Part shown: piece after piece, positions 233-64,000 of the stretch | How the letters are laid out: each line of letters begins with the position of its first letter | Numbering within the stretch: the first letter of the stretch is position 1 | Source: Eledone cirrhosa | Lineage: Eukaryota | Reading direction: 5' to 3' | Length of the DNA stretch: 64,000 nt | Assembly (NCBI GenBank): GCA_964016885.1 | Contig: OZ024742.1 | Span: forward strand, 340,876,001 to 340,940,000 | Notes under the pieces: model-generated | Databases searched by the model: none | Seen by the model: the letters and a program-made list of their open reading frames with translations, nothing else | Told to the model about the DNA's origin: nothing | Position numbers and translations under genes: made by a program

Positions 233-311
233 TCACCCAGACAGCTTTCGTCAGCTGTTTCGCAAAATTAATTGTGAAGAAGAATACCGATTCTTGCTCA
301 TCAGTGGGTGA
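233..311 (-). ncRNA. Type I hammerhead ribozyme motif
   Basis: TCACCCA CTGATGA GCAAGA..TTTTGC GAAA CAGCT gacgaa AGCTG TC TGGGTGA: 7-bp stem I, full stem III hairpin, GUC site. Confidence 0.85.
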
Positions 312-834: not shown

Positions 835-1091
835 TTATATATATTGGATTGTAGAGTAGGTAATATGAAAAAAGTCAGGACCCCGACGGCTGAGCTCCGG
901 CCGTTTCGACAGCTATCGGATCTAACTGTCAAATCTAGCTGTAAGTATGCATGCGTACACACATACAAAACACCCACCCAAACACACACACACATATATA
1001 CACAAACACACACCAACCCACCCACCCACACACAAACACACACACACATATACACAAACACACACACACACAAAAGCATACGCAAACACTC

Positions 1092-4120: not shown

Positions 4121-4123
<3 letters not shown>

Positions 4124-4328
4124 AAAAAGTATGACCCCGACGGCAGAGCTTAAGCCGTTTCGACGGCTATTTCTGGACTAAATTCAGTCCAGAAATAGCC
4201 GTCGAAACGGCTTGAGCTCTGCCGTCGGGGTCATACTTTTACCTATTTCCCACTCTACTACCGTAAGTATTGAGTACTCTGGTGCGTTATGGTCCATCTG
4301 GTTCCATAGCACAATTCCTTTGTTTTAT
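4121..4328 (+). mobile_element. Short fold-back element, 'family A' (other copies ~846-935, 8080-8245, 8285-8462, 27740-27780, 43950-44103, 54036-54298, 55040-55170, 55690-55826, 59647-59718, 63575-63686)
   Basis: Shared GTCGAAACGGC..GCCGTCGGGGTC..CCACTCTACTACCCTAAGTATTGAGTACTCTGGTGCGTTATGGTCCATCTGGTTCC tail. A ~60-bp inverted arm is present in several copies, and copies sit in or next to (TA)n. Confidence 0.85.
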
Positions 4329-7942: not shown

Positions 7943-8240
7943 AACACACAATACACACACACTGTAAACAAGACAGTGCATGCAATACAGACATTTTCTC
8001 TTCTGCCAGTCTTCTCTTATCATTTGTTAACCTTGGCGAAGCTGGGTACCTCAGCTAGTATATATATATAAATTAAAATGGGTGCAGTAAAAACCAGTTA
8101 GACGAGAGTACTCGGTGCTTGATGTAGTAGAGTGGGTAATATGAGAGATTCGGGACCCCGATAGCTGAACTACTCCCGTTTCAACCGTTCGGATCTAGCT
8201 GTCGAAACGGCAAAAGCTCAGATCTCGAGGACCCGATTCC

Positions 8241-8286
<46 letters not shown>

Positions 8287-8462
8287 AGCAAGTATGACAC
8301 AGACGGCAGAGCTCAAGCCGTTTCGACGGCTAATTCTGGACCGTCGAAAGGGCTTCTGCCGTCGTGATCATACGTGTCCCTATTACCCTCTCTACTACCC
8401 TAAGTATTGAGTACTTTGGTGCGTTATGGTCCATCTGGTTCCTTACCACTTTTCCTTCGTTA

Positions 8463-8584
<122 letters not shown>

Positions 8585-22829: not shown

Positions 22830-24115
22830 TTACTTACGGTACAAGAACTAAAGGACACACTCATAGGCAGGGACTACCCTGCATCACTAATTGACAATGG
22901 AATCCAACGTGCCCTAAAACTCAGTACCCAGGACCTTAGACACCCTAAAGTAAATCAACCGAAACTAAAAGCTCTTCCATACATCTCCACACACAACCCC
23001 CTCAACAATGAGGCCTTTGACACCATCCTCCAGAACATCCCTGTGTTAAAAAAGGACCATCGAATGAACCAAATCCTACGAACACACGATATCATAAAGA
23101 GCAAAAGACAATCTCAGTCAATGAAAAACATCCTAACACATGCCAAATTACTGCCAACCACAACAACGAAACCCACAGTAAAAAAATGCGATAGACCCAA
23201 CTGTGGCATATGCATCAACCTAATAGAGGGTTCGGAATTCTATTTCAAAGAAGGACAACGTTTTATAGTAAAACACAATTTCACATGCGCATCAGAAAAT
23301 CTAATATATGTATTAACTTGCTCAGGTTGTCGAGAACAATACATAGGCCAGACCAAAAGCAGCCTCCGCCAACGCATGACTGTCCATAGATCCCAAATTA
23401 AAATACGGGAATAGAGGAAAATACCACTGAGTGAACACATTGATACCTGTGCCGCCCAAAATCATCCCAACTTCAGAATCTTTCCCCTCTACAAATTTAA
23501 AGATGATGCAACCCACATCCAGCGCATCAGCAAGGAATCTCACTTTATTAACAAATACGGACCCAGTCTAAACACTTCTCGCTAAGACGAACCCACAACA
23601 TACACACGTCAACATACATACCTACATCAGCATACATTCTACATACATCTCTATCCACATATAAACACAATGACATACGTAGACACACATGTTCTATGGT
23701 GCAACACAAAAATACACAAATTTGCATACCTTTTGATGTCTATAGATATAAACGTGCCGACACACACACATACATATACGCACACATGCATTGCACACTG
23801 ATGGGCACATACATATTTGTACACAAGTATTCCAATACGGCAAGGCAGTACGTACAATCTGGACACTCACACACACCTTGGTGTTATGCCAATACTATAT
23901 ATCACTTCACACCTTTTATTATTAAGGTTTTTGATGTTCTATTGAGAGAATCGTTTTTACTGAAAATATCGAACAATGTACACCATTTTTACCAGTATCA
24001 CAAACATACTGGTCCACCCACACACACACATACACACATACACACACATACACATACACACACATACACATATACACACACACACATACACACGCGTACA
24101 CTAACATACAAAGAG

Positions 24116-24193
<78 letters not shown>

Positions 24194-24305
24194 CTCCGTA
24201 TGAGATAAGAGCTGAAAAATATCTTTTAACATGTTAAAATATCCCCCACACACGTACAGACACATTCCTACTGACCGATCCCTCTACCACGAATTACTCT
24301 GCTAC

Positions 24306-24370
<65 letters not shown>

Positions 24371-24892
24371 TCTTAATAGGCATCTGAACTGTTGACCTGT
24401 CAACAAACTGCAATTCACACACACATCCCTACTGACCATTATCACAACAATCAACCTCTTTACTAGTACTACACACACACACATATTTGTCTTGAAAGAC
24501 TTATTTTTCAGTGACTTCTCAATCAGCCGAGACAAACCTACATTTGGCGCAAAATCAATTTTTAACATTCACATGACCACTACCGACCAATCAAAATTGT
24601 TTTGACCACAAGATTTTTGCAACACAAATTGGCGCGAAACTTATTTTAATACATCTGGAGCCACTTTTTTCACATAAAAAGGTAGAATTTCCCAAACTAA
24701 TCAGATTAGAGCAAACATCACGGGCGCTCTATCTCATATTTATTTTTGAAAAGCATTAGAAATGCGCAACCGGTAAAAACTTAAAACCAAAACTGAATAC
24801 TAACTAATACTATTACTAATTTTTACTTATTCCTAATTAAACTATTTTTCACTGGGAAGAATTTGTCAGCATTTTCTTTTCCTTTTACCAAT
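22830..24892 (+). mobile_element. 5'-truncated Penelope-like element (Neptune-like), coding remnant ~22842-23585 plus 3' region
   Basis: LIGRDYPASLI..LPYISTHNP..KCDRPNCGIC..FTCASENLIYVLTCSGCREQYIGQT..RMTVHR; one in-frame TAG at 23412; ends ...GPSLNTSR-TAA. The 3' tip (24840-24892) matches the reverse complement of 26595-26650 and abuts (TA)n. Confidence 0.85.
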
Positions 24893-27220: not shown

Positions 27221-27300
27221 GTAGCAGGAGCAACGTGAAATAAAGTGTCTTGCTCAAAGACATAACGCATCGCCTGGTCCAGGAATCGAACTCACAATAT

Positions 27301-27344
<44 letters not shown>

Positions 27345-27664
27345 AAGGCGTGTGGCTGAGTGGTTAGAGAATTGGATTCGCAATCGTAAGGTTGTGAGTT
27401 CGATTCCTGGACCAGGCGATGCGTTATGTCCTTGAGCAAGACACTTTATTTCACGTTGCTCCTTCTACCTGGAGAGCGACCGATAGATAGTATTAGCAAT
27501 TGGAAAGACCAACGGAAACATTGTTCCCTCGGTCCGATTTGACGAAAGTCGATCGTTCCTATATATATGTATATATATAAAGAGAGAGAGAGAAAGAGAG
27601 AGAGAAAGAGAGCGAGGAAAAGAGATGTATGTATATACATTATACACACACACACACACACAGA

Positions 27665-27704
<40 letters not shown>

Positions 27705-27994
27705 TATGTGTGTGCGTGAATGTGTGTCTATATAGGTATAGCTGTCGAAACAGACGGATCTCAGCGGTCGGGGTCCTATATACTCATATGGTTCGTTGAT
27801 TATTCAACGAATACAATTTTACAATAGATTAGAAGCACTCGACAGTAGTTTTTCCTGGAGTATTTAATATTATTCAAAATATTAATAAATGATTTATTTC
27901 ACCAACTCTCAACGTTGAGAGTTGGTGAAATAAATCATTGCCACTATTGGAATTGAATAATCAAAACCGTAGCGGTATGACGCATATCAAATCT

Positions 27995-62385: not shown

Positions 62386-62885
<500 letters not shown>

Positions 62886-62933
62886 ATCTTCTATACACAA
62901 TCATACACACCCGTGTATATTTACCTATCTATA

Positions 62934-63416: not shown

Positions 63417-64000
63417 CTTGGAACTCTTTTAACCATCTTTTGATCTTATATATTATTTATACTCCAGTCCTACAAACTGTAGAGTGCTACTTATCCGATA
63501 TTTGCATTGCTTTATTGTGCTACAATAAAACTCACCTCCTACATATATATATATATATATATGTATGTATGTCGGAAAAGAGTCGGGATCCCGACGGCTG
63601 AGCTCCGGCCGTTTCGACAGCTAGATCGAGTTCGGATCTAGCTGTCGGAACGGCCGGAGCTCAGCGGTCGGGCCTTGACTCTTTTCGTATTTATATTTAT
63701 ATATGTGTGTGCGTGCGTGTGTGTCTGTGTGTATGTGTGTGTGTGCGTGTGTGTGTGTGGGGGGGGGGTATATATATATGTGTGTGTGTGTTAGTTAGGT
63801 ATATAGTAACAGTTATAGGCAACAGGCCGTCGAAGCATTCAACGCTGTTACGAGGTCTATTCTTTGGGCTGTATTCCACTGTTACAGCTTTAGGGTGTAG
63901 AGTGTAACTAGATTTAAAAGAATCGAAGTCAGTGTTACAGCATATGTACAAACTAATTTACGTATTATAATTGTTTCGATATCGATCAGCTCAGGCTACA

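Follow-up and report, generated by a model that had tools for sequence, protein, structure and literature searches.

Head-to-head half-hammerhead repeats of Eledone cirrhosa as 5'-truncated ends of a Penelope-like element, with a likely RNA start inside the ribozyme

Half-hammerhead arms in the 64-kb window

The window, that is, the whole 64-kb stretch of DNA analyzed here, contains 15 arms with the motif GTC-GAAAC-stem III-TC-GGGGTC, the 3' half of a hammerhead ribozyme, and none of the 15 extends up to the core strand. An earlier note on this DNA, made from its letters, had counted about 10 such copies in two sequence subtypes, both of which are recovered among the arms. The inverted pairs that it had claimed at five sites are present (4121-4325, 8071-8243, 8285-8465, 54036-54301, and 63575-63690), and the end of the short arm at the (TA)n flank is also seen as described, reading ..ttcc/(TA)n. 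One copy said to begin at 55043 has its true start at 55023, 20 nt further upstream, inside loop II. Positions are numbered from +1, the loop II A in TT/C-AGTCC (subtype 1) or TT-AGTTC (subtype 2). On this scale the GTC preceding GAAAC lies at +16 and the cleavage site of the ribozyme comes after +41; the inner 3' end is at ∼+60, the tail end at ∼+140, and the ATG at +232. The arms and fragments in the window are the following.

845..945, minus strand: subtype 2 arm whose tail is cut and whose 5' end bears a few bases in inverted orientation
4121..4184, minus strand: tail-less arm of subtype 1b, spanning the loop II start site through the inner priming site (..ttcc/TAT) and followed by (TA)n
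4181..4325, plus strand: tailed arm of subtype 1b; A+1 placed by inference at 4186, cleavage-site C at 4226
8071..8185, minus strand: decayed tailed arm, subtype 2-like, with its 5' end near +17 to +19
8187..8243, plus strand: tail-less partner of 8071..8185, 5' end at +2
8285..8341, minus strand: tail-less arm of subtype 1, 5' end at +2
8341..8465, plus strand: tailed partner of 8285..8341, with a small internal stem III deletion
27739..27777, plus strand: decayed subtype 2 arm
43954..44105, minus strand: subtype 2 arm with an interrupted tail, beginning at -1/+1 directly after (TA)n
54036..54301: subtype 2 head-to-head pair (54036-54089, minus strand; 54096 onward, plus strand) and a third arm
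55023..55170, plus strand: solo tailed arm that reaches -20 in loop II
55690..55824, plus strand: solo tailed arm that begins at -1/+1 after (TA)n
59640..59718, minus strand: tail-only fragment
63575..63690, both strands: subtype 2 head-to-head pair, the plus arm running from A+1 at 63629

The plus-strand arm at 4181..4325 consists, in order, of the stem II 3' strand, GAAA, stem III, the cleavage C, and the stem I 3' strand, followed by a tail of ∼75 nt and a short (TA)n. The third arm at 54142-54301 (minus strand) is joined tail-to-tail to the subtype 2 pair at 54036. In the plus arm of 63575..63690, A+1 is preceded by G, at a position occupied by T in long copies. Some 4-8 kb past the window end there is a long pair whose ribozymes are complete.

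Repeats other than this half-hammerhead family (family A) are also found in the window. At 240-304 (minus strand) an unrelated family contributes what looks like a canonical type I hammerhead (CTGATGA..GAAAC..GTC), and at least five further repeat families with CTGANGA cores stand beside (TA)n (25063, 25462, 26200, 26303, 26806, 55926, 59960, and 60135); several CTGANGA families are nested in one another or in family A. A second hammerhead family is represented at 62480-62900 by a head-to-head pair with a minimal CTGAAGA hammerhead. At 27246-27444 two tRNA-like heads, presumably SINE heads, stand in opposite orientation around a (TA)n tract. The best 150 of the 308 rows from an Rfam scan of the window include no hammerhead family. 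Genome-wide, an exact 23-base motif of the half-hammerhead has 40,448 matches in the 3.0-Gb assembly and its reversed control 0, an abundance far beyond chance, and short head-to-head pairs number 19,339 (pattern with gaps of at most 130 nt).

The complete ribozyme and the parent element

The strand missing from the window arms is found in longer copies as ACCCC-UUGANAA-G, a U3-A8 variant, with 5,231 genomic matches in subtype 1 and 109 in subtype 2; the replacement of the 5' strand by an inverted copy, as the earlier note had put it, is thus not family-wide. In 118 long copies, selected with a pattern that permitted these core variants, the core reads TTGANAA in 99, CTGANAA in 13, TTGANGA in 3, and otherwise in 3, and N7 takes all four bases. 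The canonical CUGANGA that is a trait of the Hydra clade is not what these 118 copies carry, UUGANAA being a variant of the core and not its loss. Because the core is UUGANAA, the refutation proposed in the earlier note, namely that no related sequence has a CUGANGA strand, would mislead. A canonical CTGANGA parent was sought and rejected: there are 67 genome matches, and among 30 inspected none is a parent.

In 23 copies, 92.1% of the cells in the three stems of a type I hammerhead pair, compared with 27-50% in slid controls, and G10.1-C11.1 is present in 23/23. Three pairs of stem II have two-sided changes; the covarying cells are above shuffles (0/500) and the covarying-pair count is not (325/500), both for 23 copies. 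Judged from their sequence, the long copies carry a complete type I hammerhead with a U3-A8 core, and the hammerhead identity proposed earlier for the half elements holds, since their longer relatives have the complete ribozyme. A subfamily with a C3.A8 core mismatch is amplified (13/118 long copies, among them L082, L083, L098, L099, and L117), which suggests that hammerhead cleavage is not needed for spread. Arm ends do not pile up at the predicted cleavage site beyond microhomology, tail-anchored ends at +41/+42 amounting to ∼5/175, and folding of the RNA from +1 to the tail end is no better than for shuffles (z 0.40). Cleavage-site ends were considered as a template class of the short copies and rejected; ∼7 of 100 listed junctions lie there, all on GG microhomology (by eye).

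Upstream of the hammerhead there is a 1.1-kb 3' UTR and then an ORF of ∼700 aa, the unit measuring ∼3.6 kb. Open parent frames are 695–710 aa long and contain YRDD. The ORF is modeled with a pLDDT of 92, the top folds are telomerase reverse transcriptases (RTs), and on this structure model its product is a telomerase-like RT. Pfam returns no meaningful family for two ORF copies and ten relatives, and a PDB sequence search with the parent ORF gives no match. The parent protein has 843 relatives, and its profile aligns over 554 columns with a neighboring Penelope-like element (PLE) that matches RVT_1. C-terminal GIY-YIG motifs are identified by sequence (VIY..YIG, R, H, E, N) and are colinear with the neighboring PLE in the profile alignment. 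An open 714-aa ORF of a different PLE family, with an RVT_1 match (L066:456-2597, minus strand), adjoins a family A insertion.

The parent has the motifs RWR, DKT, CNCPDRSIC, CNLC, and CKH and no cysteine pair between VIY and YIG; the diagnostics given for the Hydra clade are RWK, DKT, CxCX5C, no CCHH, and CxxC with CxH (PMC8557442, in part). Compared by eye, the parent protein tracks Hydra-1_Obim motif by motif, and it shares the (TA)n targets of the clade. In tandems the tail continues into a short 5' UTR, the ATG, and the RT-endonuclease ORF; 136 of 194 tails run directly into TATATATA and 22 into the 5' UTR. Inverted 5'-truncated copies and a one-sided tail are described as typical of PLEs in the available parts of PMC8557442, so this architecture was already known. 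On these motifs and this organization, the half-hammerheads are read as 5'-truncated 3' ends of a Hydra-clade PLE, and the earlier reading as Penelope-like pLTRs is borne out by a parent in which a complete ribozyme accompanies RT and GIY-YIG motifs. Both the clade and the core variant were known before; the family itself is a new addition to that clade.

Arm ends, junctions, and the limit in loop II

The earlier note had described an exact fold-back at stem II. Among 50 junctions listed, which are the first by position (contig C1) and not a random draw, the GTC-to-GTC spacers vary from 1 to 47 nt, and asymmetry is common among the pairs, so that exactness is lost; at 8150-8240, where a symmetric center had been claimed, one arm starts at ∼+17 to +19 and its partner at +2. 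Short internal slips, with a few bases recopied, occur at some junctions. Inverted duplications that repeat an identical junction with its flanks are seen at contig C1 5866291-5866676 and at loci L181-L185, block 23200-24550; such duplications of a kilobase or less with identical junctions are probably later rearrangements.

Among the head-to-head pairs, of which a few loci overlap so that some duplicates may remain, 97 of 109 consist of one tailed and one tail-less arm. The arms end 3' at two fixed sites, the stem I base (∼+60) or the tail end (∼+140), both at a TAT overlapping the (TA)n flank. Of 23 long pairs examined, 19 were resolved (3 were unresolved and 1 has two tails), and in 11 of these 19 the tail-less arm is the longer. 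In 69 short pairs, where small offsets are blurred by microhomology, the tail-less arm reaches further 5' in 22, the tailed arm in 31, and the two are equal in 16; 1,198 genomic junctions match a pattern with the start of the tailed arm far downstream and a partner that reaches +13 or further. Folding back of one cDNA is ruled out by the prevalence of tailed and tail-less combinations together with the longer tail-less arms. Over 38 positions, arms of the same pair differ at 2.9 and arms of different pairs at 6.7. The one clear exception among the 69 short pairs is L080, whose arms have two common haplotypes, three bases apart, indicating that two templates are sometimes used. From these lengths and haplotypes we infer that the two arms result from two separate primings, usually on one RNA.

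In another PLE, that of Anolis, both target strands are cut and extended by the protein, whose two start sites on the RNA flank the tail (PMC11167929, in part). By analogy, the two fixed 3' ends seen here fit those start sites and the two-strand extension. Palindromes at PLE junctions have been read as self-priming (PMC3846280, in part), and two separate primings would go against that reading, at least for this PLE family.

At their 5' ends, 82 of 99 motif-selected arms end between -6 and +19, 4 at -9 to -60, and 13 beyond -150. Of 45 unselected arms, drawn regardless of motif from 864 kb (164 kb of it the window and its flanks), the corresponding numbers are 37, 1, and 7. The ends peak at +1/+2, with about five in six arms within -6..+19. 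Pairs divide into 78 short-short, 23 long-long, and 4 mixed, so that passing the loop II limit is a property of the insertion. In a DNA read set that may be the source sample, a depth step is observed at +1, with opposite-strand joints.

In subtype 1b the arms are joined by a single G/C in 32 of 50 junctions listed, by a single A/T in 3, and by longer sequence in 15; single G/C junctions number 182 genome-wide. One base inward, as a control, G/C occurs in 4 versus a templated A/T in 46 of 50 listed (Fisher p 1e-15). In the older subtype 2 the 50 junctions listed comprise 44 G/C, 5 A/T, and 1 longer. The -1 base of long copies is T in 14/14 (subtype 1b) and 16/17 (subtype 2), indicating that templating ends at +1 and that G is added. 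Among 20 subtype 1b loci the G belongs to the tailed arm in 9, to the tail-less arm in 9, and is unclassified in 2; of 20 subtype 2 loci scored in the same way, 14 were unclassifiable. In L1 and SVA, an untemplated G is accepted as the sign that a cap has been copied (PMC4859970, in part). A two-base CG junction, with G on both arms, does not occur among the 50 listed in either subtype, which we conjecture is explained by a one-base C.C overlap. Slips that recopy internal bases could supply some of the G/C joining bases. Long untemplated T runs stand just upstream of +1 at L001, L047, L051, and L126, as from A-tailing or RT stutter at an RNA end.

The consensus of the Pol II initiator is YYANWYY, and the loop II site TT/CA(+1)GT, shared by both subtypes, is one that we take to fit it. 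At -29 to -31 a TATTTAAA-like box is present in subtype 1; no TATA-like box was found upstream of the loop II site in subtype 2. PLE transcription starts are placed in the pLTR by PMC2377424 and PMC8557442, as far as the available parts of both go. On sequence grounds, the loop II A is likely the Pol II start of a capped RNA. Since templating ends at +1 with a cap-like G at an initiator-like site, the half hammerhead is likely how an RNA naturally begins at its 5' end. A smaller share of the arms extends to -4 to -6, and some of these are clearly templated, so that either the start is not a single base or such arms derive from long RNAs. In the second hammerhead family a single CAGTT site, ∼45 nt before the ribozyme, is where 9/9 arms seen stop, and short copies of that family keep the ribozyme whole because the stop is upstream of it.

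Long copies behave differently from a unit-length capped mRNA, which predicts stops at +1. Of 30 ORF-start loci, 17 include the upstream motif, 11 end before it, and 2 are without an anchor; 17/17 with the motif run past +1 to the core strand and 0/17 stop at +1 of the upstream pLTR, so that long copies would have to arise from read-through RNA, from a circle, or by a strand jump. At 2 of the 30 (L251 and L263) long arms cross the ORF and end at the cleavage site of the upstream pLTR. Each of the five commonest haplotypes occurs in short as well as long arms, and one haplotype is represented by 7 short and 0 long arms in the sample.

Candidate mechanism, alternatives, and known systems

From the junctions and arm ends, the hairpins probably arise when the two nicked strands of a (TA)n target both prime reverse transcription on a short, likely capped RNA starting in loop II. 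The element protein would nick both target strands, and each arm would be a cDNA primed on its own from an RNA of the same kind, which is the principle of twin priming. With the loop II A as Pol II start, this RNA would be without the 5' half of the ribozyme; both cDNAs would run off the cap, and their ends would be trimmed and joined. The weakest step is the origin of long copies, which would come from templates without the +1 end (read-through or circular RNA) or, alternatively, from a cDNA jump to the downstream pLTR through the repeated +1..tail region. It is conceivable, but doubtful, that the ribozyme works as a split one, its +1 half completed by the 5' half in the downstream pLTR; only unit-length RNA would then be cut and circularized, the circle would be read round to give long copies and rebuild the pLTR, and ORF-less half-ribozyme RNAs would be the run-off class behind the hairpins.

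The limit at +1 might instead be a roadblock on a long RNA copied by twin priming (the loop II hairpin, a bound protein, or a lariat branch at A -4), with the stalled RT adding C. Loop II can form a small hairpin whose 3' strand covers the site, subtype 1 has a branch-site-like TTCAT/CTAAT ending at -3, and some arms reach -4. A roadblock should nevertheless act on each arm, whereas only 4/105 pairs are mixed and the partner of a long arm is long in 23/27, compared with ∼15% of arms overall; it should also act at each pass, whereas 17/17 second passes read through. Between subtypes the loop has changed in sequence but the site and the G have not, and subtype 2 is without the A at -4, all of which makes this reading improbable. 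The RNA 5' end at +1 could alternatively be made by a nuclease cut, the extra C reflecting terminal-transferase activity. The hard limit, the coupling of the arms, and the untemplated base would be explained equally well, and the T-run additions at the same site show untemplated tailing. However, the site matches the initiator consensus as we take it to be, subtype 1 has its TATA-like box at the usual distance, and the second hammerhead family stops at a similar CAGTT in 9/9 arms seen; tailing elsewhere is A-rich, whereas the single added base is G/C, and a cut is in our judgment unlikely too.

Both mechanisms offered in the earlier note fare worse. Snap-back, in which a tail-primed cDNA folds on stem II and copies itself, accords with the usual identity of haplotype between the arms of one insertion and with the self-priming reading of PLE junction palindromes (PMC3846280, in part). 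A stem II hairpin is, however, impossible in the cDNA of short arms, which stop well before the stem II 5' strand; a self-copied arm cannot exceed its template, whereas the tail-less arm is the longer or further 5' one in many long and short pairs (11/19 and 22/69), and the cap-like G occurs on either arm. Snap-back is accordingly given a very low probability. A non-autonomous hairpin element spreading as a unit, its half ribozyme completed in trans, would suit the very high copy number and the haplotype seen in 7 short and 0 long arms, but it is hardly more than a slight chance: junctions are made anew, with many different sequences among the 50 listed, the recurrent one-base junction occurs in both orientations and on several haplotypes, and the five commonest haplotypes are found in both short and long arms. 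A weaker form, in which short copies are re-transcribed from +1 by an internal promoter in the manner of SINEs, fits the preferred reading of two primings on a short RNA. Rotifer PLEs have been proposed to self-prime on an antisense template. Such a mechanism does yield the head-to-head geometry (PMC3846280, in part), but it gives no account of two fixed sense-strand 3' ends that match in vitro starts in another PLE, nor of an untemplated G at the sense 5' end on either arm, and is extremely improbable here.

The formation of inverted PLE ends, the rebuilding of the pLTR, and the role of the hammerhead are named as open questions in the available parts of PMC8557442 and PMC2377424. A start inside the ribozyme, a cap-like G, and twin priming for PLE inversions were not found in a literature search whose reach did not extend to most subscription papers and Repbase. 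This one PLE family has left ∼19,000 products of its natural reaction, for which a fixed point of reference exists. Its hairpin junctions favor two primings on sense RNA over self-priming, thereby linking two in vitro start sites to genomic inversions, and they point to a testable RNA start site inside a ribozyme. A CUGANGA search misses more than 5,000 hammerheads in this genome.

In L1 twin priming the two cDNAs cover non-overlapping parts of the RNA, whereas here one and the same stretch is represented in both arms, and each start site is fixed. Shared with L1 are two primings on one RNA that give a 5' inversion and an untemplated G that marks the copied cap (PMC4859970, in part). Like the non-LTR retrozymes, the short copies are ORF-less, hammerhead-related derivatives of PLE pLTRs; retrozymes, as portrayed in the portion consulted of bioRxiv 10.64898/2026.07.22.740005, are tandem repeats with a complete ribozyme per unit, whereas the short copies here are dispersed inverted pairs without one. 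The short copies are not retrozymes by this measure, as they have no core strand, which is also absent from L061, the only short tandem encountered.

Hammerheads of Schistosoma mansoni PLEs have the same U3-A8 core covariation, and hammerhead motif pairs on opposite strands, 100–700 bp apart, are reported for that species (PMC4209133, in part). Those ribozymes are minimal and of dimer type, whereas a full stem III is present here and short copies are without the 5' half (same article). The Poseidon element of Anolis, PAc, shares two RT starts bounding the tail, the cutting and extension of both target strands, and an AT-rich target (PMC11167929, in part). Its ribozyme activity is dispensable in vitro, and here the C3.A8 subfamily is amplified; PAc is reported to prime without target homology, whereas here each of the two ends coincides with a TAT that also belongs to (TA)n. 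The parts of PMC11167929 covered give no account of inverted junctions or of run-off at an RNA start.

The closest relatives are the Hydra clade of C-terminal EN+ PLEs (Hydra-1_Obim, Penelope-13_HM; PMC8557442, in part), which likewise have (TA)n targets, a hammerhead near the 3' end, and a 5'-truncated inverted copy at the 5' end, with RWR here in place of RWK. The unit of ∼3.6 kb with its 1.1-kb 3' UTR compares with Hydra families listed there as mostly <3 kb, and the tail of ∼75 nt with 30–40. All Hydra hammerheads in File S2 of PMC8557442 have CTGANGA and a minimal stem III, in contrast to the U3-A8 core, stable stem III, and 33-nt loop II found here. Unlike the Hydra clade as described in the available parts of that article, this PLE family has at least 19,339 short hairpin insertions.
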